A stretch of DNA of 64,000 nucleotides from an uncultured Gammaproteobacteria bacterium (GTDB lineage Bacteria; Patescibacteriota; Microgenomatia; UBA8517). The notes under the pieces were generated by a model that worked only from the letters and a program-made list of their open reading frames with translations, did no database searches and had not been told where the DNA came from. This document shows positions 1 through 38,394 of this stretch, one piece after another (positions within the stretch are counted from its first letter, which is position 1; every line of letters starts with the position of its first letter). The position numbers were made by a program, and so were the translations under genes. Where the stretch lies: contig CAYSAY010000001.1 in the NCBI GenBank assembly GCA_964429215.1, forward strand, positions 27,931-91,930, written 5' to 3'.

Positions 1-26
1 GGGGACAGGCTGATTCATTAACTGCA

Positions 27-2045
27 ATGTTTTCTGTATTGTCTTTGTATATCTTTCCCTACAGTTATTTATTATCTGCTGTATTTTTATCACTTGGAAC
101 TTTGATTAAACCTCAAGCAGCCTTTATTTTACCTGCAATTTTATACTTATTTGTTAAATCTGACATAAATAAATTATTTATTCAGAGAATATTTAAATTA
201 ATTAAATATTCTTTAGTTGGTTTAATTTTTTTTGTAGCTGGTTTTATTCCTTTTAATAACTCTTCTACTTTATATAATTTTATTCTTGAACGATTAACTG
301 TATCATCAGGACAGTATCCATATGGGTCTATAAATGCATTTTCTTTTTGGGGTCTATTTGGCTTCTGGAAACCTGACAACATTTCATTTTGGATAGGCCT
401 TTTGGTTTCTGTATTGTTTACTGCAGTGGTGTCAGTTTCTGTGTATAAAAAGAAAATTGATAACGGTCAGTATCAAATTGCTGCGTTGTCGCTTTTAATA
501 TTCTTTATGTTTTTGACAAGAATACATGAAAGGCATCTTTTGCCTGTACTTGCTCCTCTCTTGATTTCTTCGTTTGGTAATCCGGTATTACTTATTGCCT
601 ATCTAGGTTTGTCGTCAACGTATATTTTAAATTTATCATACTCATATTTTTGGATTACTGATAATTTTAAAGAGATATTTAATCCAACGCTTATTAAATT
701 TTTTATAATTACAAATTTAAGTTTGTTGATATTAACTGTGGTAACAATATTTAAAAAGTTTAAGTCCAAATTTGATTTGGTTGGGCTCTTTAAATTTAAG
801 TCTAATAAAACAAATACAATTAAAATAAATTCAATTGTTAAATTTCCAACGAAAGATATTACTAAAAAATATGCAAACATATTACTTTTTGCAGTTTTAT
901 TGTTTAGTCTCTTTACAAGAATTTACAATTTAGGAACACCTAAGGAAATGTATTTTGATGAAATATACCATTCTTTTACTGCTAGGTTAGTTTTGAATAA
1001 TGACCCAAAAGCTTGGGAATGGTGGAATCCACATCCAGAAGGTTTTGCTTATGAGTGGACCCATCCCCCATTATCAAAACTTGGCATGGCGTTGGCGATG
1101 TACATCGCTGGTGATAATTCTTTTGGGTGGAGGATACCGCAAGCTATTTTAGGAACCCTTTCAGTCCTTATGATTTACCTTTTGGCAAACGAAATATTTA
1201 AGGATAGAAAAACATCAATACTTTCAGCTTTTGTTTTTAGTTTAGATGGATTGCCTTTAGTGTTGAGTCGTATGGGAATGAATGATTCATATGTTTTGTT
1301 TTTTGCACTACTTTCAGTATATTTATTTATTAAGGACAAAAACTTTTTATCTTCGCTTGTTTATGGATTGGCGTTATCTTCAAAATGGTCTGCTCTTTAT
1401 GTCTTTCCTATTTTATTTATTTCTCATTTTGTGTTTAGAAAAAAGATTACTATTTCTTATCTCTCGTTTATCGTTTTCCCGATTGCAGTTTACATTGCAA
1501 GTTATGGAATTATGTTTGCAACTGGACATACTTGGGCGCAATTTATAGAGGTACAAAAACAAATGTGGTGGTATCATACTAGTCTTGTGGCGGAGCATCC
1601 TTATACATCACCTGCGTGGTCTTGGCCGTTATTATTAAGGCCTATCTACCTTTATGATGGACAAGAAATAAATGGGATGGTTGCAAGGATTTATGCTTTT
1701 GGAAATCCATTAGTTTTCTGGTTTGGATTTTTTTCAATCATCCTTTCTGGATTCATATCTTACAAAGAAAGGTTTAGAAAATTAGGTTTTGTCGTATTTT
1801 CATACCTTATTTTATTTTTGCCATGGATTGCTTCACCTCGTATTATGTTTTTGTATCACTATTTACCGTCTATTCCTTATATGGCGATTGCTGCAGGGTT
1901 TATATTACGTCGTTTTCCTAAAATTATCCCTTATCTATTAATTCCTAGTGTTCTTCTTTTTGTCTATTTTTATCCTCATTGGACAGGTATGAGAATACCA
2001 TTAAAGCTAGACGAGAGTTATTATTGGTTTGCTTCTTGGAGATAA
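27..2045 (+). CDS. Membrane glycosyltransferase, PMT/ArnT (GT39) family, with an extra N-terminal multi-TM region. The ORF is open to the window 5' edge, so it is probably 5'-partial.
   Basis: Motif FTRIYNLGTPKEMYFDEIYHSFTA contains the loop-1 DE motif of protein O-mannosyltransferases. It is followed by EWTHPPLSKLGMALAM and many TM helices. There is no in-frame stop between position 1 and the first ATG. Confidence 0.6.
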   Translation: MFSVLSLYIFPYSYLLSAVFLSLGTLIKPQAAFILPAILYLFVKSDINKLFIQRIFKLIKYSLVGLIFFVAGFIPFNNSSTLYNFILERLTVSSGQYPYGSINAFSFWGLFGFWKPDNISFWIGLLVSVLFTAVVSVSVYKKKIDNGQYQIAALSLLIFFMFLTRIHERHLLPVLAPLLISSFGNPVLLIAYLGLSSTYILNLSYSYFWITDNFKEIFNPTLIKFFIITNLSLLILTVVTIFKKFKSKFDLVGLFKFKSNKTNTIKINSIVKFPTKDITKKYANILLFAVLLFSLFTRIYNLGTPKEMYFDEIYHSFTARLVLNNDPKAWEWWNPHPEGFAYEWTHPPLSKLGMALAMYIAGDNSFGWRIPQAILGTLSVLMIYLLANEIFKDRKTSILSAFVFSLDGLPLVLSRMGMNDSYVLFFALLSVYLFIKDKNFLSSLVYGLALSSKWSALYVFPILFISHFVFRKKITISYLSFIVFPIAVYIASYGIMFATGHTWAQFIEVQKQMWWYHTSLVAEHPYTSPAWSWPLLLRPIYLYDGQEINGMVARIYAFGNPLVFWFGFFSIILSGFISYKERFRKLGFVVFSYLILFLPWIASPRIMFLYHYLPSIPYMAIAAGFILRRFPKIIPYLLIPSVLLFVYFYPHWTGMRIPLKLDESYYWFASWR

Positions 2046-2119
2046 TTTCGGATAAACCAGATAGACCGGAAGAATTCAGATAATCTGAAAGACAGAAAAA
2101 ATTCTGATAATATTTACAT

Positions 2120-2485
2120 ATGATATATAAAATTGCAGATCTTGAGGTATATAAGATGTCAATAGAATTATTAAAGGATCTATATATATTTTTAAAATCT
2201 GCACCCTCATCTGAATTTGATCTTTCGAAGAATTGTAAAAGAGCAGCCAAATCAATTCCTGCAAACATTGCTGAGGGCTTCGCTAAAAGAACTCATGAAG
2301 CAGTATTTAAGAATCACTTATTGATATCGCTCGGGTCTAGCGATGAGGTAATTGCGCATTTAGAAACATTGATTGCTGTAATTCCGAGATTAAATGATAA
2401 AGCCAGAATATTAATGTCTAAATATACTATTCTCTCGAAGAGATTGAATACACTTCATAAAAATTGGCACACTTATGCTTTCTAG
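2120..2485 (+). CDS. Four-helix-bundle protein (23S rRNA intervening-sequence protein / Avd-like family)
   Basis: 121 aa. Motifs KIADLEVYKMSIELLKDLY and ANIAEGFAKRTHEAVFKNHLLISLGSSDEVIAHLE are typical of the TIGR02436/PF05635 family. Confidence 0.6.
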   Translation: MIYKIADLEVYKMSIELLKDLYIFLKSAPSSEFDLSKNCKRAAKSIPANIAEGFAKRTHEAVFKNHLLISLGSSDEVIAHLETLIAVIPRLNDKARILMSKYTILSKRLNTLHKNWHTYAF

Positions 2486-2541
2486 CAATCTAATCTGATC
2501 TGACTTGTCCGATTTATCAGGTGTATCTGATTTATCTGAAA

Positions 2542-3417
2542 TTATAGTGCTAGAAGTAGGCTTCCAAGTATTACAAGTATTCCAAATCCTGTAGCAAGTA
2601 CTGTTGGCCAGCTTGTTCCTACAACTGGTAGTGAAGGCTGATTTGTAGGTGTAGATGTTGCAGCATTTGTTGCAACTGGGCAGGTACAATCAGTTTCAGT
2701 TAGACATTGTGTGTTTCTACAACTTCCGGTAGATGCGCCTGAAGCAATGTAACACATTAGGCCTGAAGGACAGTTGGCATTTGTTGTACAACTGTTGTTA
2801 CATTGTGGGTTTGCAGTAGCTGTAGCTGTTGCAGTTGATGTCGCTGTAGCTGTAGCTGTTGATGTCGATGACGCTGTAGCTGTTGGAGTTGCAGTTGCAC
2901 AGACACAAGTTGTTGATGTTGAACAAGAATTATTTCTACAGTTACCTGCAGTTTGTCCTGTTGGAATGTAACAAGTCATGGTTGTTGGACATTGTGTTGT
3001 ATTAGTACATGCAGTATTACATTGTGGAACAGCTGTTGCTGTAGCTGTTGCAGTTGGTGTTGCTGTTCTTGTAGGTGTTGCAGTTGGTGTTGCAGTTCTA
3101 GTTGGAGTTGCTGTAGGTGTTATTGTTGGTGTTGCTGTAGGTAGTGCAATTGTAAATACTAAAGAACAAGCTCTTGGCATACATAATCCAACGGTATTGT
3201 CTGTTCCTGTTTGTGTGCAGACTTCGTTTGGATCAGGACATAAGTCTCGTAATCTAGGATTACATGATTCTCCTGCTGCGGCTGGTTGACTTGATGGGAC
3301 ATTTGGAGCTACTGCTACATCTCTTGATTGGTATAGTTTAATAGCTGTAAAAATTGCAACTCCTGCAAGTATTAAAGTTGTAATTATTATTCCTATTGTT
3401 GTGTATTTATTTTTCAT
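2542..3417 (-). CDS. Membrane-anchored Cys-rich surface protein with a tandem 8-Cys module and TATPT linkers
   Basis: It has an N-terminal TM and two 43-aa modules with identical spacing (C-x3-C-x5-C-x5-C-x10-C-x4-C-x5-C-x-C). The modules are separated by (T-A-T-P-T)n linkers. There is a C-terminal hydrophobic segment. Confidence 0.5.
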   Translation of the reverse strand: MKNKYTTIGIIITTLILAGVAIFTAIKLYQSRDVAVAPNVPSSQPAAAGESCNPRLRDLCPDPNEVCTQTGTDNTVGLCMPRACSLVFTIALPTATPTITPTATPTRTATPTATPTRTATPTATATATAVPQCNTACTNTTQCPTTMTCYIPTGQTAGNCRNNSCSTSTTCVCATATPTATASSTSTATATATSTATATATANPQCNNSCTTNANCPSGLMCYIASGASTGSCRNTQCLTETDCTCPVATNAATSTPTNQPSLPVVGTSWPTVLATGFGILVILGSLLLAL

Positions 3418-4746
3418 TTAGATTATTTTTGGTTTCCATCCTAGTGATACATGGTTTAATTGTGCTTTTACTTCAAATCTAGTTGTTCCTGCTGAAAGTG
3501 CAGGAATTGTATATGATTGACAGAAATCTGTAGAACCTGGTCTAACTGCTGTTGTTTCTGGCATTTGGACACCGTTTATTTTAAAGATTGCTTTGTCGAA
3601 AGATCCTCCTGTTGCAGTTCCTGTTGCACAGAAGTTTACAACGCTACCTGCTCTTAATGCACCAAGTTGAGTAACTGTTAATTCAGTCCAAGTTGGACTA
3701 TATGCTTTTATGGTTTGGCATGAAGCTGTAATTGCAGGTGCAGTTGGTGTTGGTGCAATAGTTGGTGGGACTGTAGGAGGAGTTGTTGGTGGTGGATTTG
3801 TATTACATCCAGAATCATCAGTCCTTGAACAAAAACCTGATTGATTGTCTGCGTCTACTTGTACAATTCCACAAAAGCTTCCAGTTATTGTTTTACTTGT
3901 ACCGTTCCACCCAACACCAGATGGTAAGGGATCTTTTCGTTGACAACCATTAGGAACACCACCTGTACTTCCAATTCCTTCTTCACCTTTACAATAATAT
4001 GTCTGTACAGACCCAGTTATAGTACTACAATTACCGCCTGTAACGTTGTAACATTGTCTCTCCTCTAACACTTGATTACAAGTTCTGTTGGCGACTTTGA
4101 GACAAAAAGTACATTCAGATCCCCCAGTACCACTACCACATTGAAACCATCCTGCTCCTTCGGTTTGGCTAGAAGAACAATTTCCAGCTGTGATTTCTTC
4201 TCCACCACCTCCACCACCTCCGCCACATTCTTGTCCTGATTCGCCACAACTGTCTGATTGTGAATACCATTTACACTCATAACTTTTTTTAGGATCGCCT
4301 TTTAGAGGAGAGCAACTACTATTACATGACGATTGTGTTGTATTAGTTCCACATCCACCTCCTGCTTGCTCATTTATATTTTGATTTTGGCCTGTTAAAA
4401 ATACTCCTGCACCAACTCCTCCTACTAACAAAAACAATCCTAAAATTGTTGCTATTACTTTTCCGCCTGCAAATTTTTTCTTTGGACCTGAGATTACTAC
4501 TGCGGGCATTACTGTATCAATTTTTATGTCATCTGCAGGTGCAGCAGAACCAGAATCAACAACTGGAGATGGATTAACAACATCTTGTGCCACTCCGCTA
4601 AGCGGAGTTTTGTCCTCGCTTAGCGAGGGCATAGGAGGAAGAATATCTTCTTGTATTAATACAGGTGGAATACTGGTTGGTTGTGACTGTGTATCGTCTG
4701 TTTTAGCTTGTTTCTGATCGTTAGGCATATGACTTTTTGTATACAA
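3418..4746 (-). CDS. Cys-rich membrane-anchored surface protein with a Pro-rich N-terminus, a poly-Gly run and a PTTPPTVPPT linker
   Basis: 442 aa. TM at aa 95-117. There are more than 30 Cys, a GGGGGGGGEE run and a Thr/Pro linker. It overlaps the upstream gene by 26 nt (operonic). Confidence 0.45.
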   Translation of the reverse strand: MYTKSHMPNDQKQAKTDDTQSQPTSIPPVLIQEDILPPMPSLSEDKTPLSGVAQDVVNPSPVVDSGSAAPADDIKIDTVMPAVVISGPKKKFAGGKVIATILGLFLLVGGVGAGVFLTGQNQNINEQAGGGCGTNTTQSSCNSSCSPLKGDPKKSYECKWYSQSDSCGESGQECGGGGGGGGEEITAGNCSSSQTEGAGWFQCGSGTGGSECTFCLKVANRTCNQVLEERQCYNVTGGNCSTITGSVQTYYCKGEEGIGSTGGVPNGCQRKDPLPSGVGWNGTSKTITGSFCGIVQVDADNQSGFCSRTDDSGCNTNPPPTTPPTVPPTIAPTPTAPAITASCQTIKAYSPTWTELTVTQLGALRAGSVVNFCATGTATGGSFDKAIFKINGVQMPETTAVRPGSTDFCQSYTIPALSAGTTRFEVKAQLNHVSLGWKPKII

Positions 4747-6049
4747 ATATACTGGATAACAATATCCCTATACCCATTATGAATAAGCCAAGTGTTGGTG
4801 TCAAGCTACCAGTTTCTGGTGTTGGCATCAGTGTACTAACTGCAGTTGCAGTGGCCTTTTGAGTCGCAGATACAGTTGCTGTTGCAGTAGATGTTGCAGA
4901 TGCTTGAGTTGTTGCAGTTGAAGTAGCTTTTTGAGTTGGTGTTGCTGATGGAGTAGACTCAAATGCTGGTCCTTCCGCAGCAGAAACGACAAATGATTTT
5001 GTAACTGTTCTTAAAATACCAGTTGCGTCTCTCCATTTTAAAGTTACTTTGTGTTCACCTGGTTCAAGGTTATTTGGTGGACTCCATTTCCACGCACCTT
5101 TAGAATCTGCTGTAATAACTGCGGATTGTAATTCTGATTCAACCTGAATTTCTATTTGTGCTTTTGTTGGTGCTTTACCAAAAAATTCTGGATCAGTTGT
5201 ATTTATTATTTCTCCTTCATCTATAGATTCAATAGATAAAGTACTTACTGTATTTGGTACTTCTGATTTAGTAATTTCAAATCTTGAAGAAGCTTCTATC
5301 GCTTGTGGTACAGACAATGAACTTTCAGGAAGTGTTGTATCGTTGTTTTGAGTTAAAGTTCTAAAGTCATATGTTTTACCTAAGACTATTACTGGAATTG
5401 ACTTAATGTTTTTAGAATAAATTACAGCTGATGAGTTTCCATTTGATCCTCCATTTACTGTTATTTCAATAGCTGCTGATTCTGAGACGTTGTCAACATA
5501 ATTTGATATTGGAATAATATAACTACCTTCTGGTGAAGTAATATTTGTTAACAGAGTTCCGTTTATATTGATTGTAACGATTGCTTGTGCCGGTGTTGCT
5601 CCGTCTGCAAGGTAGACTATACCTGATGCAATTAAATTTTCAGTTCTTGCAACTTTATTGTTATTTGTGGTTAATTGCCATGCAATTCCATCGTTATCAT
5701 AATCTTTTCCTTCTGAATTTACTTTGAAGAATATATTTGAACCGGCATCTATCCCAGATATTGTAGCTGAATGTACAAAGCTTTTTTCAGAGTTTGTCTC
5801 AAGTGCAACTTTACTTAAACTATTTTGAGATTTACCCCATTTGACAAATCCTTTGGTCTCAATGTCTGTGTTCCAGGTTACTGTTGCTTCTGTGTTTGTT
5901 ACATTGCTAAATCTAACATTCTTAGGTGTAGTGGCAACACTAGCGCCGATTTTAAAAACTGATTTTGAATTAATTAAAAAGACTCCTGCTACAACACCAA
6001 TTACTAATATAATTACTCCAAGTATTGTAGGAAGTTTAGCTCTATTCAT
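4721..6049 (-). CDS. FN3-domain surface protein with a C-terminal cell-wall sorting-like signal
   Basis: N-terminal TM/signal anchor. PKNVRFSNVTNTEATVTWNTD...FFKVNS is an FN3-like domain. The C-terminus has a Thr/Ala/Ser linker, then PTPETG, a hydrophobic stretch and KKSYA. Confidence 0.5.
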   Translation of the reverse strand: MNRAKLPTILGVIILVIGVVAGVFLINSKSVFKIGASVATTPKNVRFSNVTNTEATVTWNTDIETKGFVKWGKSQNSLSKVALETNSEKSFVHSATISGIDAGSNIFFKVNSEGKDYDNDGIAWQLTTNNNKVARTENLIASGIVYLADGATPAQAIVTININGTLLTNITSPEGSYIIPISNYVDNVSESAAIEITVNGGSNGNSSAVIYSKNIKSIPVIVLGKTYDFRTLTQNNDTTLPESSLSVPQAIEASSRFEITKSEVPNTVSTLSIESIDEGEIINTTDPEFFGKAPTKAQIEIQVESELQSAVITADSKGAWKWSPPNNLEPGEHKVTLKWRDATGILRTVTKSFVVSAAEGPAFESTPSATPTQKATSTATTQASATSTATATVSATQKATATAVSTLMPTPETGSLTPTLGLFIMGIGILLSSIFVYKKSYA

Positions 6050-6245
6050 CGTGAGTTCTAAGTTTTATCTCATCTAATGTTTTTATGTCAAGGTTTGGAT
6101 CAAGCTTTAAAATTAATTCTTGTGGAATATCAGTTTTTGATTCTTTAGTAAAAACACTATATATAGAAAAACTGATCCAAAATAGTGTAGTAATTAAAGT
6201 AAGAATAATTAATATTATTAAACTTGGTAATTTATTTTTTTTCAT
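6042..6245 (-). CDS. Small membrane protein (hypothetical)
   Basis: 67 aa. MKKNKLPSLIILIILTLITTLFWISF is a TM helix. It overlaps both flanking operon genes. Confidence 0.3.
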   Translation of the reverse strand: MKKNKLPSLIILIILTLITTLFWISFSIYSVFTKESKTDIPQELILKLDPNLDIKTLDEIKLRTHDE

Positions 6246-6906
6246 TTTGTTTAGTATCTATTGTATAAGGAACTCTTCCTGAGATTAATAAGCTTATTAT
6301 CTTACCGTTTTCAGTAGTATTTGCATTAACTATTATTGAATCAATTTTTATTGGTCGTCTTAAATATTCAATACTTTTTAAGTATGATGATAAATTTTGA
6401 TATTCACCAGATACTGTAATTGAAAAAGGTAATTCACTAATGTCACCAAATACATTAGATACGTCAGCTGATTTTTGTTTTGCAGGTGGCACACCTTTCA
6501 TGACGATGTCAGATGATGACATACCAACAATTTGGACATTTGAAGATAATGCAATTTTTTCAAATTGTTTTATAAGCGTTTCTGGTGATGATGAGTTTGG
6601 AATAGCTTGATCAAGATATTGTAATTTTTCTGAATTTGTTTGAAGCAAGTTGCTTGCTTTTTGTAAATTACTAATTTTTTGATTTAATTCTGCAATTGTT
6701 GCTGTCTTTGATTCAATTTCTTTACTTAATTCTACAATTGTAAGTACTGTTGGTTTGATCGCAAAAATTGAAAATATAATTATCGTTACAATGGATAATA
6801 TTAGTTCAAGATATATTTTTAAGTTTGGTTTGCTATTATAGACACTAAGAATATTTAAAAAAAATTCTTTATATCTATAATAGTCATGTTTCCATCCAAT
6901 TGCCAT
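6232..6906 (-). CDS. pilO: Type IV pilus assembly protein PilO
   Basis: N-terminal TM, then a coiled coil, then a C-terminal DISELPFSITVSGEYQNLSSYLKSIEYLRRPIKIDSI segment typical of PilO. Confidence 0.6.
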   Translation of the reverse strand: MAIGWKHDYYRYKEFFLNILSVYNSKPNLKIYLELILSIVTIIIFSIFAIKPTVLTIVELSKEIESKTATIAELNQKISNLQKASNLLQTNSEKLQYLDQAIPNSSSPETLIKQFEKIALSSNVQIVGMSSSDIVMKGVPPAKQKSADVSNVFGDISELPFSITVSGEYQNLSSYLKSIEYLRRPIKIDSIIVNANTTENGKIISLLISGRVPYTIDTKQNEKK

Positions 6907-6907
6907 A

Positions 6908-7474
6908 TTATTTATTAGTCGTTAGTTGATTACTAGACACTTCAGCAGTAATAGTAAAATTTGTAATTGCGGAATTTTCAGTGTTTGATGAAACTTGAGT
7001 TAAATTAACATTTGTTAAAAACTTAGAATTTTCAAGGTTTATTAAAAATTGAGCAATTGATTGTTCAGAGAAAGAAATTGCTTTAATAGTTAAGTCTTTG
7101 TTTGTAATTGAAATTGAACTTAGAATGGTGTCACTTGGTATGTATTTTGAGACAGCTTCAATGGTGTTATTCACACTTGGTTCAGAATAGAGGACATTTA
7201 GAATTTTTAGTTTGTTTTGGTTAAGTCGGAACTGGTCTTCCGTACTAGCATATGCTAAAACTTGTGATTTTTTAACATTAAGTTCATCGTTAAGATCTGA
7301 ATTTCTTGAGTCAAACCAAAATCTTGAAAGAAATGCACTCATAACAATAAGTTCAGTAATAATAACTGTGACACGAAATGTAGAAAGAGCCCATTTTAAT
7401 ATTCGACCAACAGTGGAACCTTCGAATTCTTCTTGAGGTATTAGATTAATTTGTTTTGTTTTTCTAATGGGCAT
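6908..7474 (-). CDS. pilN: Type IV pilus assembly protein PilN
   Basis: N-terminal INLIP motif (INLLP in PilN), then a basic stretch and a TM helix. It lies immediately upstream of pilO. Confidence 0.55.
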   Translation of the reverse strand: MPIRKTKQINLIPQEEFEGSTVGRILKWALSTFRVTVIITELIVMSAFLSRFWFDSRNSDLNDELNVKKSQVLAYASTEDQFRLNQNKLKILNVLYSEPSVNNTIEAVSKYIPSDTILSSISITNKDLTIKAISFSEQSIAQFLINLENSKFLTNVNLTQVSSNTENSAITNFTITAEVSSNQLTTNK

Positions 7475-7517
7475 GTACTCAATATATCACATAGAAAGTC
7501 GCGTTAGAAGAGAAAAT

Positions 7518-7751
7518 TTATTTTGAAAGTTTTGATAGCTGAGATTTAATTCTTGCAGCTTTGTTTGCATGAATTGATCTGCTTTTTGAAGCTTTGTCGG
7601 CAAAAGATGATGCTGATTCTATATCTTTTTTAGATTTTGTTTTTTTAGCTTTTTTAATTGCTACTTCGAGCTTGGTTAAAACTACTTTATTTATAGCTTC
7701 TTTTCTTTGAGAACCTCTTAATGCTCTTTTGGCTGTTTTTGTTACTGGCAT
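7518..7751 (-). CDS. rpsT: 30S ribosomal protein S20
   Basis: 77 aa, basic. The MPVTKTAKRALRGSQRK...AINKVVLTKLE pattern matches S20. Confidence 0.8.
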   Translation of the reverse strand: MPVTKTAKRALRGSQRKEAINKVVLTKLEVAIKKAKKTKSKKDIESASSFADKASKSRSIHANKAARIKSQLSKLSK

Positions 7752-7787
7752 ATGGGTAGTATAATCTGGAAAAGCTAATTTGACAAT

Positions 7788-9482
7788 ATGAACATGAAAA
7801 TATTAACAAATAAAATAAAATCACTTTTTCAAGATCAGCAGCACTCAGTACTTTCTGCAGCTACTTTAATTATGGTGATGATTGTCATATCAAGGCTGTT
7901 GGGTTTGGTTAGACAAAGAGTACTTGCTCATTTTTTTGAATCTAGTGACTTAAGTTTGTTTTTTGCTGCATTTAGATTACCTGATACTATTTTTGAAGTT
8001 TTGGTTTTTGGAACTTTTGCATCCGCGTTTATTCCTATATTTACCACAACACTTAAAAAATCAAAAGAAAATGCTTGGAAAGTTGCTGGAATTATTGCAA
8101 ATTGGGGTGGAGTAATTTTTATAGTTTTGGCTACTATTGTGGTTATATTTGCGCATCCTTTGTATAGAATAATAACTCCTGGGTTTAATTATTCTGATCA
8201 GGCAAAAATTGCCGATCTTGCAAGAATTCTTTTTGTGGCACAAGGGTTTTTTGTAATCTCGTATGTATTGACTGCAGTCCTTGAGTCATCCAAACGATTT
8301 TTTGTACCTGCTTTAGCACCACTTTTTTATAACCTTGGAATGATACTTTCTACGATACTATTTGCAGATAAGTTGGGACTTTATGCCCCTGTAATTGGTG
8401 TAGTAGTGGGATCGGCAATGCATTTTTTTATCCAATTGCCACTTGCCATTAAACTTGGGTTTAGATTTAGTAAGGCGTTTACTCTTACGCCTGAAGTAAA
8501 AAAAATAGCCAAATTATCACTTCCTCGCATTGCAGAGGTTTCTTTCTTGCAAGTTGCTAAATTTGTTGAGCTCACGTTAGCGAGCCTAATTTCTGTCCCT
8601 GCGTACACTTATTTTACCTTTGGAAACACAATTCAACTATTGCCGGTTGGGCTTTTTGGTACTTCAATTGCAAAAGCTGCTCTTCCTACACTTGCAAGAC
8701 AAGCTGACGACCTTCCTGCATTTAAGAAGACTTTGTTTGAAACGCTAAATCAAGTTATATTTTTAATGGCACCCATTGTTGCATTTTTGATGGTCGCAAG
8801 GGTTCCAGTTGTAAGACTTATTTTTGGAACTGATATCTTTACTTGGAATGCTACAGTTGAAACATCCCTTGTTGTGTCTGCCTTTGCTTTTGGAATATTT
8901 TCTCAATCAATTAATTCAATCCTAGCAAGGTCTTTTTACGCATTATCAGACACAAAAACTCCTGTAATTGTTTCGGTTTCTACATTAATTTTAAATATTG
9001 TTATGGACTATATATTAGTAATTGTATACAAGCTTCCAGTTTGGAGTTTGGCAGCTGCGTTTTCTGTTTCATGCATTATTCAATCCGTAATACTTTTTGT
9101 ACTAATAACAAATAGAATTCATGATGGTGCAAAGAAAAGTTTATACATCCCAGTTTTGAAAATGTTTTTTTCAGGTTTAGTTTCAGGGAGCACTATGTTT
9201 TTCATATTAAAGTTTTTTGATAAATCTGTTTGGCTTAAGAAAATATCCTTTATCTCAAACCTTGATTTGCCGTTTGAGAAGTTTGTATTAGACACTAGGT
9301 ATGCTGGAAATTTATTGATGTTGACTGCGATCGTAGGTTTAATAGGTGTTGTTGTTTATATAATAGTTTTAAAATTATTAAAATCAACAGAGCTTGATAC
9401 ATTCATAAATTTATTTAAAAGAATGCTTCGTGGTCAAAAGTTTTCTACCGTATCAAATACTGAACAAACATTGGAGAGTTAA
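7788..9482 (+). CDS. murJ: Lipid II flippase MurJ (MviN)
   Basis: 564 aa polytopic membrane protein. N-terminal SAATLIMVMIVISRLLGLVRQRVLAHFFESSD is the MurJ signature. Confidence 0.8.
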   Translation: MNMKILTNKIKSLFQDQQHSVLSAATLIMVMIVISRLLGLVRQRVLAHFFESSDLSLFFAAFRLPDTIFEVLVFGTFASAFIPIFTTTLKKSKENAWKVAGIIANWGGVIFIVLATIVVIFAHPLYRIITPGFNYSDQAKIADLARILFVAQGFFVISYVLTAVLESSKRFFVPALAPLFYNLGMILSTILFADKLGLYAPVIGVVVGSAMHFFIQLPLAIKLGFRFSKAFTLTPEVKKIAKLSLPRIAEVSFLQVAKFVELTLASLISVPAYTYFTFGNTIQLLPVGLFGTSIAKAALPTLARQADDLPAFKKTLFETLNQVIFLMAPIVAFLMVARVPVVRLIFGTDIFTWNATVETSLVVSAFAFGIFSQSINSILARSFYALSDTKTPVIVSVSTLILNIVMDYILVIVYKLPVWSLAAAFSVSCIIQSVILFVLITNRIHDGAKKSLYIPVLKMFFSGLVSGSTMFFILKFFDKSVWLKKISFISNLDLPFEKFVLDTRYAGNLLMLTAIVGLIGVVVYIIVLKLLKSTELDTFINLFKRMLRGQKFSTVSNTEQTLES

Positions 9483-9586
9483 CTCTAAGATTACAAATAA
9501 TGATTGGTTAGGAGGGATGGGGGTTGTAATTATATTTTTAGTTATTAAGAAAAGAAGAGTTTGAAGTATTAGTGTAAAATGAAAGT

Positions 9587-10417
9587 ATGGAAGTGAGTAA
9601 GATCGCAATCTTCAAAGGCAAAAAGGTAAGAAAAGTTATTTTTCAAAATGAGTGGTGGTTTTCTGTTGTTGATGTTGTTGAAGCTTTGACAGATAGCGTA
9701 GATCCGCGTGATTACTGGTTTAGAATGAAAGTCAGAGTTAAAAGTGATGATGGAATTGAGTTGTCGACAATTTGTCGACAACTGAAATTAGAATCGTCTG
9801 ATGGTAAAAAATATAATACGGACTGTGCAAATACTGAAAGTATTTTTAGGATTATCCAATCGATTCCTTCTCCAAAAGCAGAGCCTTTTAAGCGCTGGCT
9901 GGCTAAAGTTGGATATGAAAGGGTACAGGAGATTGAAGATCCTGAACTTGCCACAAAAAGAACAAGAGCTATTTATAAAGCAAAAGGTTATCCCGATTCT
10001 TGGATTGAAAAAAGAATGCGTGGTATTGAAATCCGAGAAACATTAACAGATGAATGGAAAAAGAGGCGGGTTGGAGGGGATTTAGAATACGCAATTCTAA
10101 CTGCTGAAATTTCAAAGGCTACTTTTGGAATGATCCCAAGTGAATATAAAAAGTTCAAAGGTTTAAAAAGAGAAAATCTTCGTGATCATATGAATGACCT
10201 AGAATTAATTTTTTCAATGCTTGGTGAGGCATCAACGACTGAAATTGCTAAAAATCAGAATTCTCAAGGATTTATAGAAAATAAAATCTCTGCACAAAAA
10301 GGTGGAACAGTCGCAGGTAATGCAAGAAAAGAACTCGAAAAAGAAAGTGGGGTAAAAGTTTCAACCAAAAAGAATTTTAAGTTATTGAAAAATAAAAATC
10401 TTCAAATTGATAGTTGA
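9587..10417 (+). CDS. BRO-N domain protein, DinD-like (DNA-damage-inducible protein D family)
   Basis: FQNEWWFSVVDVVEALT is a Bro-N motif. The C-terminal half resembles E. coli DinD (KGLKRENLRDHMNDLELIFSMLGE...). Confidence 0.55.
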   Translation: MEVSKIAIFKGKKVRKVIFQNEWWFSVVDVVEALTDSVDPRDYWFRMKVRVKSDDGIELSTICRQLKLESSDGKKYNTDCANTESIFRIIQSIPSPKAEPFKRWLAKVGYERVQEIEDPELATKRTRAIYKAKGYPDSWIEKRMRGIEIRETLTDEWKKRRVGGDLEYAILTAEISKATFGMIPSEYKKFKGLKRENLRDHMNDLELIFSMLGEASTTEIAKNQNSQGFIENKISAQKGGTVAGNARKELEKESGVKVSTKKNFKLLKNKNLQIDS

Positions 10418-10442
10418 CAACTGTTGGCACTCAATGTATATT
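10414..10442 (+). promoter_or_regulatory. Sigma70-like promoter (TTGACA-17-TATATT) for hrcA-grpE
   Basis: TTGACA at 10414-10419. Then a 17-nt spacer. Then TATATT at 10437-10442. Confidence 0.6.
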
Positions 10443-10450
10443 AGTGCTAA
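10424..10450 (+). promoter_or_regulatory. CIRCE operator (HrcA binding site)
   Basis: TTGGCACTC-N9-TAGTGCTAA has one mismatch to the consensus TTAGCACTC-N9-GAGTGCTAA. It overlaps the promoter. Confidence 0.8.
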
Positions 10451-10483
10451 CCTCGATTAAATCGGGGTAAATATCAATTTATT

Positions 10484-11206
10484 ATGAATGCATTAACATC
10501 GAGACAGACACAAATTTTAAAGGCACTTATCGATGAATATATTGAAACAGCCGAGCCTGTTGGTTCTGGTCCTCTTGAGAAGAAATATAATTTAGGAGTT
10601 TCCCCTGCAACTATTCGAAATGAAATGGCTAACTTAACTTTATTAGGATTTTTAAAACAGCCTCATACATCAGCTGGAAGAATTCCAACATCTGGTGCTA
10701 TGAAATTCTACGTTGATCAACTTATGGAAGAAAAACAGATGAGTTTAGCTGAGGAAGTTAAGGCTAAAGAAGAGGTTTGGGATGATAGAGGTAATTTTGA
10801 TAAATTTATAAATGAAATGACTCATTCGTTAGCAGACAGAACTGGCGGAATGGCAGTTACCGCAACTCAAGACGGTTCAGTCTGGCAAGCAGGACATGGA
10901 AATTTATTTAGTTACCCAGAATTTGCAAATATAGGAATTTGCTCTTCTTTATTTGGATTCATGGATGAGGATGAACAACTAATGGATTTATTTTTTAATA
11001 GGTTTCCAATAGAGACTGCATTTGATGTACTATTTACTGAAGATTTAGGATTTAGGAATATGCCTGTGGGAATAGTTGCAGCTCATTTTAATGTGAAGGG
11101 TAGAAATGGTGCACTTGGGGTGATTGGTCCTGTTAGACAGTCTTATGCAAGCTTGGTTCCAGTGATCAGATACTATAGAGGAATGCTTGAAGATGTAATG
11201 CAATAA
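10484..11206 (+). CDS. hrcA: Heat-inducible transcription repressor HrcA
   Basis: The N-terminus RQTQILKALIDEYIETAEPVGSGPL is the HrcA winged HTH. A CIRCE element lies upstream. Confidence 0.85.
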   Translation: MNALTSRQTQILKALIDEYIETAEPVGSGPLEKKYNLGVSPATIRNEMANLTLLGFLKQPHTSAGRIPTSGAMKFYVDQLMEEKQMSLAEEVKAKEEVWDDRGNFDKFINEMTHSLADRTGGMAVTATQDGSVWQAGHGNLFSYPEFANIGICSSLFGFMDEDEQLMDLFFNRFPIETAFDVLFTEDLGFRNMPVGIVAAHFNVKGRNGALGVIGPVRQSYASLVPVIRYYRGMLEDVMQ

Positions 11207-11721: not shown

Positions 11722-11746
11722 CAACGTCTTAGCACTCGTTGTATAT
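11717..11746 (+). promoter_or_regulatory. Sigma70-like promoter for dnaK-dnaJ
   Basis: TTGACA at 11717-11722 and TATATT at 11741-11746. About 50 bp are near-identical to the hrcA promoter. Confidence 0.6.
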
Positions 11747-11754
11747 TAGTGCTA
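11728..11754 (+). promoter_or_regulatory. CIRCE operator
   Basis: TTAGCACTC-GTTGTATAT-TAGTGCTAA. Confidence 0.85.
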
Positions 11755-11791
11755 ACTTCGATTTAATCGGAGCTAATATAAATTAAATAAT

Positions 11792-20433: not shown

Positions 20434-21684
20434 ATGAGTCATAAAATAATTACTCTAATTTTAACTAGTTTTTGTTATCTGTTTTTATTAGTAAATAATA
20501 TCAGTGCACAAACATGCAATTTTCCCATCGGTGATAGTAATCTAAGAGATTACGGAACGGTAAAATCTCTAGAGATTGGTGGTCCTATACTTGGAAAAAT
20601 GACTGGTTTAGTAAATGATTCTGTCGAGGAGACAAAACTATTGAAAGAATTCTCATTTGCGGTTTCACCAGTTTTCATGGCCAGAATCCAACCAACAAGA
20701 AACACATTCAACTATTTATCAATGAATAAGGATATTGAAGTTGCGAAGCAATACAATTTAAAGCTAAAGGGTGACAGTTTGATTTTTGGAACTACTTCAA
20801 TAAGTCCCGGATGGCTAGGATTTACTGACACTAGTTGTGGTTCGTGGACTAATGTCGAACTAGATTCAATAATGAAAGACCATATTCAGAAAATAGTTAC
20901 ACATGGTGGGTCAAATTATTCAATATGGGAGGTGGTTAATGAGCCGTTTGACGGCAACGGCAATCTTTATAGATGTTGGTACAAAATACTTGGTAGGGAG
21001 TATATAGCCAATGCTTTTCGATATGCTGACCAAGCAAGACCTAATAAAGATATCAAATTAATGTTGAATGAACATTTTGGGTGGACTGCTTCACTTACTG
21101 AAGACAAACCGAAAATAGACGCCTTTATTAATTTAGTTAAAGAGCTGAAAAATGCAAATATTCCCCTAGATATTTTAGGAATCCAATTACATTTAAGGTT
21201 AGATGGGTTGTCCCAAACATATATAGATGAAATAAATTATTTTTTGACAGCAGCTCAGTCATTGCAGTTACCTGTACATATCACTGAAATGGATGTTTAT
21301 CAGGGAGTGTCACCTATGGCTGATTGGGAACAACTTCAAAAAAATGTATATAAAAACATCGTAGCTACATGTCTAAAATACTCAAACTGTAAATCATTTT
21401 CAACATGGGGAATATCTGACAAGTCAACATGGTTGAACAGTATAAATAATTTTCCAAACCCTAAACCACTTCTTTTTGATACAAATTATCTAAAAAAGCC
21501 TGCATATTTTGGTGTCGTAGAGGCAATATCTGAAGATACATTTCGTACATGTACTTCAAAACCAGGAGATTTAAATAATGATGGTTCTGTAAATATTTTC
21601 GATTACAATATTTTAATTTCGAAATTTGGAAACCCTTATACTTATGCAGATTTTGATTTGGTTGTTATAAATTATGGTAAATAA
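20434..21684 (+). CDS. Secreted glycoside hydrolase family 10 (endo-1,4-beta-xylanase-like) with a C-terminal dockerin-like module
   Basis: Signal peptide. WEVVNEP (acid/base), LGIQLH, HITEMDV (nucleophile) and STWGISDKSTWL are GH10 motifs. The C-terminal DLNNDGSVNIFDYNILISKFG is a dockerin Ca-binding repeat. Confidence 0.7.
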   Translation: MSHKIITLILTSFCYLFLLVNNISAQTCNFPIGDSNLRDYGTVKSLEIGGPILGKMTGLVNDSVEETKLLKEFSFAVSPVFMARIQPTRNTFNYLSMNKDIEVAKQYNLKLKGDSLIFGTTSISPGWLGFTDTSCGSWTNVELDSIMKDHIQKIVTHGGSNYSIWEVVNEPFDGNGNLYRCWYKILGREYIANAFRYADQARPNKDIKLMLNEHFGWTASLTEDKPKIDAFINLVKELKNANIPLDILGIQLHLRLDGLSQTYIDEINYFLTAAQSLQLPVHITEMDVYQGVSPMADWEQLQKNVYKNIVATCLKYSNCKSFSTWGISDKSTWLNSINNFPNPKPLLFDTNYLKKPAYFGVVEAISEDTFRTCTSKPGDLNNDGSVNIFDYNILISKFGNPYTYADFDLVVINYGK

Positions 21685-22783
21685 CAGACTTAAAACATTA
21701 AAGATTGTAGCAGAAATAGTTGTGGCAATCATTTTGTTAGTCTCTTTGGTACTTGGAGTAAATCTTGTTCTGAAAGGGAGAAATAATCTTGGTTCTATCG
21801 CTGGTGTTGTTGGGCCAAAGATAGCATTTTCAACGACGACCAGTACAATGAAATTGGGAGAATCAAAATCTTTTGACATTTTGCTGTCGACAGATACTAA
21901 TTTTATTACCGCCGTTCAAGTCGATTTGTCTTACGACCCTACAGTTTTGGATCAGGTAACATTTTCAAATGGCACAATTACCCCAGTCGTTTTAAAACCG
22001 CTCTCTACCAACAATGGAATTGCGTCTATAACACTTGGAGTGATGCCAACAAAAGCTTTCCATGGAAATGGTATTGTTGGTAAACTAAATGTCCATGCTA
22101 AAACTATAAAGAAAACTTCAATTACTTTTACTCAGAATTCTATTGTAACTTCGATGAATATTAACTCAAACACCCTAACTACCAGTGATTCAATTTTGAT
22201 TGATATTGTACCAAACACAATATTAGATTTTTCTGATGTTCCCACTTCACACTGGGCCTACAGTAATATAAGAATTTTACAGATACTAGGTATAGTACAA
22301 GGGTGTTCTCAAAATCCTTTAAAATATTGTCCAGAAGACCCAACTACTCGTTCTACAGCTAGTATCTTTTTACTTAAAGGAAAGTATGGTCAGAACTATT
22401 CGCCTCCGTTAGCCACTAAAACAAGTTTTTCTGATGTTCCCACTTCACACTGGGCATACAAATGGATTGAGCAATTAGCCAAAGAAGGGATAACTTCTGG
22501 TTGTGGATCTGGTAAATATTGTCCAGAAAGTCCTGTCACAAGAGCTCAGATGGCAGTATTATTGTTAAAAACAAAACATGGAATTAGTTATGTCCCATCC
22601 GTTTTTCCGACATCATTATTTTCTGATGTTCCCACTTCACACTGGGCATACAAATGGATTGAGCAATTAGCCAAAGAAGGGATAACTTCTGGTTGTGGAT
22701 CTGGTAAATATTGTCCAGAAAGTCCTGTCACAAGAGCTCAGATGGCAGTATATATAGTCAAGACTTTTAATTTGAAAATATAG
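21674..22783 (+). CDS. Cell-surface anchoring protein: N-terminal TM, a cohesin-like domain and three SLH domains
   Basis: AVQVDLSYDPTVLDQVTFSNGTI and NGIVGKLNVHAKTIKKTSITF resemble cohesin strands. There are three FSDVPTSHWAY...VTRAQMAV repeats (SLH). Confidence 0.6.
   Translation: MVNNRLKTLKIVAEIVVAIILLVSLVLGVNLVLKGRNNLGSIAGVVGPKIAFSTTTSTMKLGESKSFDILLSTDTNFITAVQVDLSYDPTVLDQVTFSNGTITPVVLKPLSTNNGIASITLGVMPTKAFHGNGIVGKLNVHAKTIKKTSITFTQNSIVTSMNINSNTLTTSDSILIDIVPNTILDFSDVPTSHWAYSNIRILQILGIVQGCSQNPLKYCPEDPTTRSTASIFLLKGKYGQNYSPPLATKTSFSDVPTSHWAYKWIEQLAKEGITSGCGSGKYCPESPVTRAQMAVLLLKTKHGISYVPSVFPTSLFSDVPTSHWAYKWIEQLAKEGITSGCGSGKYCPESPVTRAQMAVYIVKTFNLKI
22428..22760 (+). repeat. Tandem direct repeat: two identical ~131-bp copies (22428-22558 and 22630-22760) with a 202-bp period, encoding SLH domains 2 and 3
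   Basis: Verbatim identical DNA, ttttctgatgttcccacttcacactgggcatacaaatggattgagcaattagcc...cagatggcagta. Confidence 0.9.
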
Positions 22784-22796
22784 TAAAATATTTCTT

Positions 22797-23408
22797 ATGC
22801 AAGGAAACAATTCAATTTCAACACCAGTAGTTACTCCACCTCTTGTGATTGAGTATCCAAAATCAAACAATTATTTAGTTATGTTGTTATCTATCTTGCT
22901 AATTATCTCTGTAGCTATTTCAGGTTTTTTTGCTTTCCAAACACAGAAATTAGTTAAAGAATTAACTTTACTAAGAAGTGAAGCTACACCAGTTGCAACA
23001 GTAGAACCACTTACAACAAATAGTGCAATTGCAACTGCCGATCCAACAGCAAATTGGAAAACATATACAAATCCTAATTTTAGCTTTAAATATCCAGACA
23101 GCCTAAAAGTTGGAGAGATTGTCCCTGAATATATAGTCAAATTTGTGGACTCAAAACTAGTTGAAAAAATCATTATGTACCAAGGACAGTTTGCAGATGG
23201 AACTGACAATCCAAATTCAAAGTTTGAATATTCAGCAGGAAAAATACAAAACCAAGAATCTAAAATACAAAAAAATTATTCATATAATAAATTAGTTCAA
23301 ATATCCTATGAATTCAAGGTCAATGACGAGGACACAATAATGTCATTTGTTGGAATTGACCAAGAAGTTATTGATCAAATTCTTTCCACTTTTAAATTCA
23401 CAAATTAA
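22797..23408 (+). CDS. Membrane-anchored hypothetical protein (paralog of 40748-41359)
   Basis: TM LLSILLIISVAISGFFAFQTQKLVKELTLLR is shared with the paralog at about 80% nt identity. Confidence 0.45.
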   Translation: MQGNNSISTPVVTPPLVIEYPKSNNYLVMLLSILLIISVAISGFFAFQTQKLVKELTLLRSEATPVATVEPLTTNSAIATADPTANWKTYTNPNFSFKYPDSLKVGEIVPEYIVKFVDSKLVEKIIMYQGQFADGTDNPNSKFEYSAGKIQNQESKIQKNYSYNKLVQISYEFKVNDEDTIMSFVGIDQEVIDQILSTFKFTN

Positions 23409-37720: not shown

Positions 37721-37734
37721 GTAAATCAAAAGTA

Positions 37735-38394
37735 ATGAATCGTCGTAAAGTAGTCAAACTTGCTAGTCTAATTTCAGGTCTTTCGGGACTTACAATTCTT
37801 GTATCTTCAGTATGGCCAATAGTAGAATATCAGTTAACTGAGGCCAGATCTTATACAACATTATTATCACCATTAGTAATAACAAAAGAAGATCAGGTAC
37901 AAAAAACAGGTGATTTAACAAAAGCTTCTAATTGGTTTCCAGATGCTCCTAAAAATGATCAGTTCGAGAAGTCAAAAGTTGATTTCTATACAATTTCGAT
38001 ACCAAAATTAAAAATTGATAATGCAATTGTTTCAATAGGTGGGGAAGATTTGTCAAAAAATCTTGTTCAGTATCCTGGAACTGCATTACCTGGAAAAAAT
38101 GGAAATGCAGTAGTTTTTGGCCATTCAGTTTTACCAATTTTTTATAACCCAAAAAATTATATGGCAATATTCTCTACTCTTCCAACACTTAAAACAGGTG
38201 ACGACATACTAGTTAATTATGACGGAGTTGCCTTTAAATTTTTAGTGGAGGAAATGTTTGAGATTTATCCTTCAGACATTCAAATATTAGAGCAAAATCC
38301 ATCAGATTCGTTTTTGACGTTAGTCACTTGTACTCCACCAGGGGACCCTAGAAATCCTAAGAGATTGATAGTAAGGGCCAGAGTTACTTCTTGA
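37735..38394 (+). CDS. Sortase (transpeptidase)
   Basis: N-terminal membrane anchor, VVFGHSV (His), LTLVTCTP (TLXTC Cys), RLIVRARV (Arg). Confidence 0.8.
   Translation: MNRRKVVKLASLISGLSGLTILVSSVWPIVEYQLTEARSYTTLLSPLVITKEDQVQKTGDLTKASNWFPDAPKNDQFEKSKVDFYTISIPKLKIDNAIVSIGGEDLSKNLVQYPGTALPGKNGNAVVFGHSVLPIFYNPKNYMAIFSTLPTLKTGDDILVNYDGVAFKFLVEEMFEIYPSDIQILEQNPSDSFLTLVTCTPPGDPRNPKRLIVRARVTS

Follow-up and report, generated by a model that had tools for sequence, protein, structure and literature searches.

A conserved gene array of pilN, pilO, and four further single-pass protein genes with a convergent tandem glycosyltransferase gene in Woesebacteria/Microgenomates

Gene array and its conservation

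A compact array of six co-directional genes was recognized near the start of the 64-kb window (the whole stretch of 64,000 nt analyzed here, from contig CAYSAY010000001.1), which had ~33% G+C and whose closest protein relatives were found in Woesebacteria/Microgenomates metagenome-assembled genomes. The array was located on the minus strand and was composed of (i) pilN (6908-7474; 188 aa; Pfam PilN 2.5e-14, 53.5 bits vs. cutoff 22.8), (ii) a pilO-like gene (6232-6906; 224 aa; Pfam PilO 3.1e-08, 34.3 bits vs. cutoff 22), (iii) the gene for a 67-aa single-pass transmembrane (TM) protein (6042-6245; detected by tblastn at 35-62% identity in nearly all related loci with enough flank), (iv) the gene for a 442-aa FN3/Big_13 protein (4721-6049; Big_13 7.6e-09, Pur_ac_phosph_N 5.8e-07, fn3 0.005), hereafter the FN3 protein, (v) the gene for the Cys-rich protein CysB (3418-4728; 436 aa, with the ATG start as called on public contigs, a TTG at 4746 being less likely), and (vi) a further Cys-rich open reading frame (ORF), CysA (2542-3417; 291 aa). 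The PilN and PilO domains of the window proteins scored above the Pfam gathering scores, and on these matches the two were shown to be bona fide family members; the gene identities were regarded as almost certain. An earlier prediction made for this DNA (the original prediction) had described six overlapping or abutting minus-strand genes, and the ORFs and junctions bore this out: pilN and pilO were 1 nt apart, pilO overlapped the TM protein gene by 14 nt, the latter overlapped the FN3 gene by 8 nt, FN3 overlapped CysB by 8 nt, and CysB and CysA abutted. Across related loci, the pilN>pilO distance was 0-5 nt, and those of pilO>TM and TM>FN3 were mostly -4 nt, consistent with translational coupling; the same tight spacing was present in every locus measured. 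As read from the sequences, each of the six products had one N-terminal TM segment and an N-in/C-out single-pass look.

The array was preceded on the same strand by rpsT (ribosomal protein S20; 7518-7751; TIGR00029 8.5e-09), which was the first co-directional gene of the array in nearly all loci. At its other end lay two plus-strand genes: one for a four-helix-bundle protein of the 23S_rRNA_IVP family (2120-2485; Pfam 4.4e-19, TIGR02436 1.1e-17), and one for a tandem GT-C glycosyltransferase (3-2045, the 3' 681 codons of an 825-aa protein) whose protein O-mannosyltransferase (PMT) module began at ~nt 890.

The loci compared (numbered L001 onward) included 19 species-representative ones, from a scan with the FN3 protein, and 80 metagenome ones, from a scan with PilN; three further locus look-ups from CysB homologues agreed with both scans in gene order, and synteny counts were restricted to loci with enough flank. 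The common order was dnaK-grpE-hrcA-murJ, then rpsT-pilN-pilO-TM-FN3-[CysB-CysA]n, the convergent PMT gene, further GT-C genes, LCP, UvrD, and FemAB, and the array with the convergent PMT gene was kept in ~40 Woesebacteria/Microgenomates loci. Among the metagenome loci, S20 was found upstream of pilN in 68 of 70, PilO in 52/52, the FN3 protein in 38/38, CysA in 18/18, CysB in 17/18, and PMT in 17/18, while the PMT gene and the Cys-rich genes occurred together in 17 of the 19 species-representative loci (one of the exceptions, L026, ends before the PMT site). All the related loci belonged to one lineage (DnaK 74-96% identical), of which the array is a fixed feature.

The original prediction had also placed a GT39 gene next door and asked whether it travels with the four-helix-bundle and Cys-rich genes. 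A GT39 gene with the expected D-E motif was indeed present, but it was convergent to the array with the four-helix-bundle gene in between; GT39 and the Cys-rich genes did co-occur at the frequencies given above, but the four-helix-bundle gene was found at this site only in the window, L048, and L070 and was absent from L004-L026, and it is no conserved member of the locus. Its family presumably includes the Avd proteins of diversity-generating retroelements (DGRs). A reading of the Cys-rich genes as DGR targets was discarded: there were no template/variable-type (TR/VR-type) repeats, no ORF resembling a reverse transcriptase was noticed among the window ORFs examined, and most relatives lacked the four-helix-bundle gene. 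Direct repeats of at least 40 nt in nt 1-10,000 comprised the Thr/Pro (TP) and Thr/Ala (TA) linker repeats (see below) and two weak, chance-like two-copy matches only.

Several variations around the array were observed. In many relatives, a two-TM protein of 93-113 aa with the motif FDxFFPxxGxWSxxYF ... KGxFYxxPA was encoded 3' of CysA (L005:12369-12650, L016:13403-13696, L018:13475-13762, L020:13295-13582, L022:13170-13511, L024:13102-13389, and L025:9877-10164); the window lacked it and had the four-helix-bundle gene at this place instead. In L008:11283-13260 and L012:11217-13249, the FN3 gene and CysB were separated by three extra genes (~326-348 aa, 54-67 aa, and ~228 aa; none Cys-rich). 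Beyond the PMT gene, upstream of the window start, L001:1296-5133 contained genes for a 317-aa protein with a faint putative-glycosyltransferase match, a 655-aa DUF2298/chlor_Arch_YYY GT-C-like membrane protein, and an LCP-family glycopolymer transferase, which placed the PMT gene in a wall-glycan neighborhood.

The original prediction of one transcript for the six genes fitted the tight packing and the lack of minus-strand terminator-like sites inside 2542-7474. The gap of 43 nt between the co-directional rpsT and pilN held no hairpin that stood out (z = 0.31), and a promoter-like TTGTCA-17-TATACT was located upstream of rpsT at 7758-7786. The start codons of rpsT and murJ were divergent and 36 nt apart (7752-7787); rpsT may be leaderless, as the -10-like TATACT ended 7 nt ahead of its ATG. 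Against a single transcript stood a conserved sigma70-like motif inside the FN3 gene. Simple counts of promoters and terminators in nt 1-10,000 equaled the shuffled expectation; the best promoter-like site of the first 10 kb was TTGACA-17-CATAAT (4776-4804, minus; 11/12 match), within the 3' part of the FN3 gene and ~48 nt before the CysB ATG, where its bases double as codons (S-L-T...F-I-M) for the sorting signal of the FN3 protein (see below). This site was meaningful only because of its conservation across loci: 19 of 23 distinct homologous tails scored at least 10/12, always with the 17-nt spacer (random windows: 1.6%), the Leu codon was TTG in 21/22 tails vs. 17% usage in window genes, and the rare codons AGC, TTC, and ATA recurred at the site. 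These observations point to selection at the DNA level and suggest a separate promoter for the CysB-CysA cassette besides any read-through; given such an internal promoter, "one transcript" is probably oversimplified.

Tandem glycosyltransferase and Thr/Pro linkers

Frame 3 contained no stop before nt 27, and thus the GT39 ORF ran off the window edge; the full protein of 825 aa was encoded at L001:5267-7744, on a public contig overlapping the window end with identical proteins, and the first ~144 residues of its N-terminal module lay off the window. The loop-1 DE motif claimed by the original prediction was present as YFDEIYH (D-E at nt 957-962) in an ORF that, as seen in the window, was not complete. 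The corresponding D446 and E447 were invariant in 30 homologues. Pfam matches were PMT (PF02366; 3e-14, 53.6 bits vs. cutoff 22.7), PMT_2 (2.6e-12, 47.7 vs. 26.1), and PMT_4TMC (PF16192; 6.6e-19, 68.6 bits vs. cutoff 32.4), the last of which is not known from ArnT-type enzymes. A phmmer search against PDB returned fungal Pmt4 (9i5k, 4.2e-06) and Pmt1 (6p25, 4.9e-04) only, through the PMT_4TMC region. With an AlphaFold2 (AF2) model (predicted local distance difference test score [pLDDT] 82.8), Foldseek ranks 1-7 were fungal Pmt4/Pmt1/Pmt2 (E 7.8e-11 to 5e-6), while ArnT 5ezm was ranked 27 (E 0.014). Pfam, the invariant D-E, the PDB sequence matches, and the fold search thus all favored a PMT over the ArnT subclade, as originally predicted, and a PMT-type enzyme was assigned with high confidence; the ArnT/lipid-modifying reading was ruled out by PMT_4TMC and the two PDB-based searches (sequence and fold).

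The enzyme reached 65.6 bits vs. a cutoff of 800 with the NCBIfam bacterial Pmt equivalog NF058602, and it was therefore only distantly related, and not orthologous, to the actinobacterial enzyme. No MIR domain was found in the 825 aa; actinobacterial Pmt is not known to have one either. A GT-C module of its own was formed by the N-terminal ~400 residues, in which acidic loop residues (LDHGTF and WSDY) were likewise invariant. The N-module of the window lineage alone had no Pfam match; among 10 N-modules, weak matches to PMT_2 (six), PIG-U (three), Mannosyl_trans4 (two), and GT87 (PF09594; one) were obtained, and an N-module profile matched GPI mannosyltransferase 1 only in PDB (E 3.1e-05). 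Whole-protein Foldseek also listed this GPI mannosyltransferase (TM-score normalised to target length 0.68), ALG3, and PimE 9dm7 (0.62). From these profile and model comparisons we infer that the N-module may be a PimE/PIG-M-like GT-C mannosyltransferase. Fusion homologues of ~800 aa gave 946 matches and were common in Microgenomates. In bacterial O-mannosylation, PMT initiates and the GT-87 enzyme PimE extends, both from polyprenol-phosphate-mannose (PMC12757957), and by analogy the predicted PMT plus PimE/PIG-M-like fusion would fit this two-step scheme. The enzyme and the actinobacterial pathway (GT39 Pmt, e.g., M. tuberculosis Rv1002c, plus GT-87 PimE) shared PMT with PMT_4TMC, the loop-1 DE, the lack of MIR, a second PimE/PIG-M-like GT-C activity (here predicted), and Thr/Pro-rich unstructured acceptor regions in Sec-exported proteins, but they differed in that here the two GT-C modules were fused in one ~800-aa polypeptide, no confident placement of the N-module in GT87 was obtained, and the organism was a Patescibacterium. 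Within the literature collection searched, no paper combined protein O-mannosyltransferase with Candidate Phyla Radiation (CPR).

Long Thr/Pro linkers, noted in the original prediction for the FN3 protein and the two Cys-rich proteins, proved real: CysA had TATPT/TATATA runs at residues 93-129 and 174-202, CysB residues 312-332 read PPPTTPPTVPPTIAPTPTAPA, and the FN3 protein had runs at 365-392. They were encoded by 6-30-nt DNA repeats, and these three proteins were the only ones in the window with T/P-rich runs of at least eight residues. Pro-Thr linkers are known to be glycosylated, and the linker TPTPTATATP of Caldicellulosiruptor bescii CelA depends on GT39 (PMC12757957). The CelA system likewise involves a non-actinobacterial monoderm with GT39 and a linker close to the TATPT/TATATA of CysA; unlike in C. 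bescii, the putative substrates here were membrane- or wall-anchored non-enzymatic proteins, and the enzyme was a tandem GT-C.

Sorting signals and the CysB-CysA cassette

The FN3 protein was composed of an N-terminal signal-anchor, an FN3-like domain, a Big_13 domain, and a T/S/A-rich linker, followed by TPETG (4808-4822), a TM segment, and a KK tail (YKKSYA). PETG was invariant in the homologue alignment, relatives displayed LPETG, LPESG, IPETG, or LPQSG, and the motif across loci was [LIT]P[EQD][TS]G. By these features, the C terminus reads as an LPXTG-type sorting signal, and anchoring of the FN3 protein by sortase is likely. CysA ended with LPVVG (2617-2631), WPT, and a TM segment, and the family pattern LPx[VAS]G[TV]xWPT plus TM was conserved; none of the NCBIfam sorting-signal models matched CysA, and its anchoring by sortase was judged moderately probable. 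A sortase gene (37735-38394, plus; Pfam Sortase 8.6e-25; TIGR01076 55.5 bits vs. cutoff 39.35, with no class cutoff reached) was located ~30 kb from the array, and its product is a candidate enzyme for both signals; sortase is near-ubiquitous in Microgenomates (PMC6744442). Directly 5' of it was encoded a 708-aa protein with a weak Baseplate_J-like match (1.1e-06) and no NCBIfam match (the two genes spanning 35594-38394, plus).

The FN3 protein resembled Gram-positive LPXTG surface proteins in its [LIT]P[EQD][TS]G motif with hydrophobic segment and basic tail, and Ig-like domains, a low-complexity stalk, and a sortase in the genome were also shared. The differences were threefold: the N termini here looked like uncleaved signal-anchors, which would make two-end tethering possible; the CysA motif was LPx[VAS]G plus WPT with no basic tail; and no pilin-type isopeptide domains were detected here. 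In the Haloferax S-layer glycoprotein, a Thr-rich O-glycosylated stalk directly precedes the processed C-terminal anchor. The arrangement here was alike in having a mucin-like Thr-rich stalk directly before the C-terminal sorting signal and TM; it differed in that Haloferax uses PGF-CTERM with archaeosortase, in another domain of life and with no homology.

Neither CysA nor CysB had a Pfam or NCBIfam match. CysB displayed the structure Pro-rich cytoplasmic N terminus, TM (4390-4458), hypervariable Cys-rich ectodomain, P/T linker, and C-terminal Ig-like domain (AF2 pLDDT >90; fold matches generic Ig-like only). Identity was 80% in the TM, 60% in the C-terminal domain, and 24% in the Cys-rich region; the TM being the most conserved part argues for specific contacts within the membrane. 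CysA displayed an N-terminal signal-anchor, a C-x-L-x-F-T motif, TP/TA linkers, two 8-Cys modules, and the sorting-type signal; its homologues contained zero to four copies of the 8-Cys module, and some of them were composed of TM, TP linker, and anchor only, with a single Cys. CysB and CysA always occurred as a 1:1 B-A tandem pair, and the cassette was duplicated as a unit (B-A-B-A) in L005, L021, and L023. A CysB profile search gave 1472 clusters at 50% identity (E<=1e-3), and, among the matches listed, almost no family member had a precomputed Pfam domain; CysA/CysB is a large uncharacterised, undescribed family pair.

An odd number of Cys residues was found in 34/34 CysB and 46/46 CysA distinct proteins from the fetched loci (ranges 7-43 and 1-33, respectively) and in 180 of 184 CysB and 105 of 106 CysA database proteins, together 285/290. 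Each partner had one invariant unpaired Cys: Cys84 of CysA (3166-3168), which was within C-x-L-x-F-T and was the sole Cys in twelve one-Cys variants, and Cys337 of CysB (3718-3720), with which the C-terminal domain began and whose two fellow Cys in that domain were either both present or both absent. No Cys was found in the other array products. From the odd counts and the one invariant Cys in each, the simplest account is that the other Cys would form intramolecular disulfides and one thiol would be left per partner; this pattern suggests CysA-C84 to CysB-C337 as the most economical intermolecular bond, and the case for a covalent CysA-CysB pair is about evenly balanced. Disulfide machinery of the MdbA/VKOR type is enriched in CPR genomes (PMC6744442).

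A single chimera (L015:13457-14245; 262 aa) combined a CysB-type N terminus and TM with a CysA-type TP linker and an IPDSG sorting signal; both odd-Cys motifs were missing from it, and its even count of 12 Cys fits the odd-Cys rule. Cys84 as a lipoprotein Cys was rejected, as it was 25-40 residues past the TM segment with no lipobox. Two further variations of CysB were observed: (i) the CysB homologues of L031, L032, and L036 had the Ig-like C-terminal domain replaced by a different ending, ...VPQEGNYLVQCQICTDSTLSNCTTMGQAN, and still had odd counts (13, 17, and 25 Cys, respectively) and (ii) a CysB-type C-terminal domain was also present on the 559-637-aa proteins P0071, P0096, and P0367, of which P0071 and P0096 had Hint/PT-HINT/intein-type Pfam domains, and P0071 and P0367 belonged to the small minority of the family in which the Cys count was even.

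Proposed roles of the array and other features of the window

CPR/Patescibacteria live attached to other cells, with type IV pili as the best-supported attachment device, and we know of no account of how the pilus crosses and is braced in the secretin-less, Gram-positive-like CPR envelope. PilN of the window began with KQINLIPQEEF, and xINLLPxEEF was conserved in 22/22 aligned loci; in other bacteria, this INLLP-type N-terminal motif is the PilM-binding peptide. The type IV pilus alignment subcomplexes (PilM-PilN-PilO-(PilP)-PilQ of diderms and PilMNO of Gram-positive systems) and the array had in common PilN/PilO domains, bitopic topology, a PilM-binding-type N-terminal motif, and further envelope-spanning components directly downstream of pilO. 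They differed in that, here, pilM was not adjacent, PilP/PilQ were absent, rpsT was upstream, and pilO was followed by the genes for the 67-aa TM protein, the Ig-like protein with the sortase signal, and CysB/CysA. Components of the type IV pilus are present in CPR bacteria, PilQ is not, and PilM, PilN, and PilO are generally all encoded in CPR genomes (PMC6744442). In one complete Microgenomates genome, PilM is listed at the type IV pilus locus, and PilN and PilO are not (PMC7143001). These distributions suggest that PilN and PilO of the array belong to the pilus machine itself.

The original prediction had tied the array to pilus assembly and had called the downstream proteins pilus-associated adhesins. 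Neither claim was upheld by what was sought: no pilM, pilB, pilC, pilT, or pilin-like gene was found in the 64-kb window, which left PilN/PilO homology and gene order as the tie, and gene order was also what spoke for an adhesin role; none of the three proteins was pilin-like. A pilin or minor-pilin reading of the downstream proteins was rejected, since no class III signal of the G-FTLIE type occurred anywhere in the window and their N termini were plain signal-anchors. Physical association with the pilus machine was given an even chance.

The preferred reading, adopted tentatively and a little short of even confidence, is that of a Woesebacteria/Microgenomates envelope array joining pilus alignment proteins to four lineage-specific single-pass proteins reaching from the membrane into and beyond the wall. 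The pilus platform would consist of PilN-PilO bound to PilM, whose gene would lie elsewhere; with the small TM protein and the FN3 protein it would be extended, in a role analogous to PilP/PilQ or TsaP of diderms, with sortase linking the FN3 protein covalently to peptidoglycan. CysB would be membrane-anchored with a hypervariable disulfide-rich head and CysA wall-anchored and stalk-like, and the CysB-C337/CysA-C84 disulfide would join the pair in a surface-exposed complex whose variable modules may meet a host cell, particle, or phage. The T/P/A linkers would be O-mannosylated on emerging from Sec, the PMT module adding the first mannose and the PimE-like module extending it, and mannosylation would stiffen the stalks and shield them from proteases. 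An adhesin role of the variable heads is possible; no specific fold match spoke for it, and the anchors were the best conserved parts.

The following points weigh against this reading: (i) the lack of pilus genes in the window noted above, together with the co-option of PilN/PilO (PilMNO) homologues for non-pilus structures, e.g., flagellar cages (PMC10823254); (ii) the overlap of the promoter motif with a conserved peptide; (iii) the CysA signal, from which the usual Thr at position 4 and the basic tail were both missing; (iv) possible homodimers or other partners for the free Cys; (v) polyprenol-phosphate-mannose synthase, for which no gene was seen in the window; (vi) the housekeeping flanks (dnaK-grpE-hrcA-murJ-rpsT, LCP, UvrD, and FemAB), which were as conserved as the array; and (vii) L015, which kept the TP-rich proteins with no PMT gene within 10 kb, its PMT site being occupied by a DUF2298/YYY-type GT-C and LCP.

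The last two points bear on the link between enzyme and linkers. The original prediction took the TP linkers for PMT substrates: TP/TA linkers are documented GT39 substrates (PMC12757957), but adjacency was weak evidence for a specific link here, because all loci came from one lineage and the flanks were equally syntenic. Both distant-relative scans (species-representative and metagenome) gave only this lineage, and a test separating the PMT link from general synteny was therefore without power. By analogy with the documented linkers, and with TP runs in the window confined to these proteins, we lean slightly toward mannosylation of the linkers by the neighboring enzyme. The best-surviving alternative, itself doubtful, is that the PMT gene is a mere syntenic neighbor, i.e., a general secretome O-mannosyltransferase or a wall-glycopolymer enzyme acting with GT-C/LCP, the TP linkers being unglycosylated or not its specific substrates. 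The gene was convergent and its own transcription unit, the syntenic block held unrelated housekeeping genes, L015 had TP-rich proteins with no adjacent PMT, the fusion homologues were very widespread, and actinobacterial PMTs act on many secreted proteins (PMC12757957); however, acceptors that are proteins and not lipids are indicated by PMT_4TMC, the DE motif, and the fold of a PMT, the sole TP-rich proteins in 64 kb were its neighbors, and the CysA linker was close to a documented GT39-dependent one.

Unlikely is the original proposal in full, in which pilus assembly is coupled, through a single polycistronic transcript, to three O-mannosylated adhesins that are associated with the pilus, bind host cells or particles, and have GT39 dedicated to them. 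The tight packing with no terminator-like sites, the PMT-type enzyme adjoining in 17/19 and 17/18 loci, and the confinement of TP linkers in the window to these proteins agreed with it; so did the hypervariable Cys-rich ectodomains, which suit surface recognition, and the Ig-like domain of CysB, which most resembled, though weakly, accessory/binding modules of carbohydrate-active enzymes. However, there was the conserved internal promoter before CysB, conservation of CysB/CysA was highest in the TM and anchor segments, a pattern unlike that of an adhesin, some CysA homologues had no binding module at all, the FN3 protein was conserved to the same degree as PilN and PilO, and the four-helix-bundle gene was unlinked. 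Less likely still is a pilus-independent wall-anchored glycoprotein coat or membrane-to-wall tether, with PilN/PilO-like proteins co-opted as membrane scaffolds (as in the flagellar-cage precedent) and the FN3 protein and CysA-CysB as structural envelope parts made beside murJ, LCP, GT-C enzymes, and FemAB: this would agree with the missing pilus genes and non-adjacent pilM, with MurJ on one side and PMT, DUF2298/YYY GT-C, LCP transferase, and FemAB on the other, with an array universal and single-copy in the lineage as for a housekeeping structure, and with two products predicted to be anchored in both membrane and wall, but not with the INLLP motif in 22/22 loci, the PilM/PilN/PilO distribution (PMC6744442, PMC7143001), or the hypervariable ectodomains, unusual in a purely structural coat.

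The reading of the array as an envelope assembly joined to pilus alignment proteins may be carried further. In a version that is improbable as a whole, the array would be the wall-spanning part of the secretin-less CPR pilus machine: PilN-PilO coupled in the membrane to a sortase-fixed Ig-like protein and a disulfide-linked, O-mannosylated CysB-CysA heterodimer, the hypervariable cystine-rich heads forming a host-recognition surface at the pilus base and the fused initiate-and-extend PMT/PimE-like enzyme glycosylating the stalks. If so, the rule of one free Cys per partner would define a new two-component covalent surface-protein system. The array, with six single-pass proteins of which two had sortase-type signals, is a lineage-wide candidate for the missing pilus-bracing module; if the pilus link is wrong, the locus would still be a useful, though ordinary, marker of Woesebacteria envelope architecture. 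PilN/PilO, PMT, and sortase substrates are known kinds of proteins; the fused PMT, the CysA/CysB parity cassette, and the embedded promoter together set this locus apart. Three further leads were provided: an uncharacterised family pair with a putative covalent-pairing rule, a predicted PMT plus PimE/PIG-M-like fusion, which would support the two-step O-mannosylation model and extend PMT-type glycosylation to Patescibacteria, and a probable promoter written in sorting-signal codons.

Beyond the array, a 61-nt direct repeat (82% identical) was located upstream of hrcA and dnaK (10424-10484 and 11729-11789); it included TTAGCACTC-N9-(G)AGTGCTAA, presumably a controlling inverted repeat of chaperone expression (CIRCE)-type HrcA operator. 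Within 20434-22783 (plus), a GH10 xylanase (Pfam 2.1e-58) with a weak C-terminal dockerin match (0.0045) was encoded, and the protein encoded directly 3' of it had a weak cohesin match (2.2e-4) and two SLH domains (6.1e-26); as their domain matches go, the two could be a minimal cohesin-dockerin surface-anchored xylanase pair in a Patescibacterium. Within the SLH gene, a 133-nt stretch was repeated exactly and in direct orientation (22427-22559 and 22619-22751). At 22797-23408 and 40748-41359 (plus) lay the genes for two paralogues, each a single-pass protein of 203 aa with no Pfam match; the two genes shared a 158-nt stretch at 78% identity.

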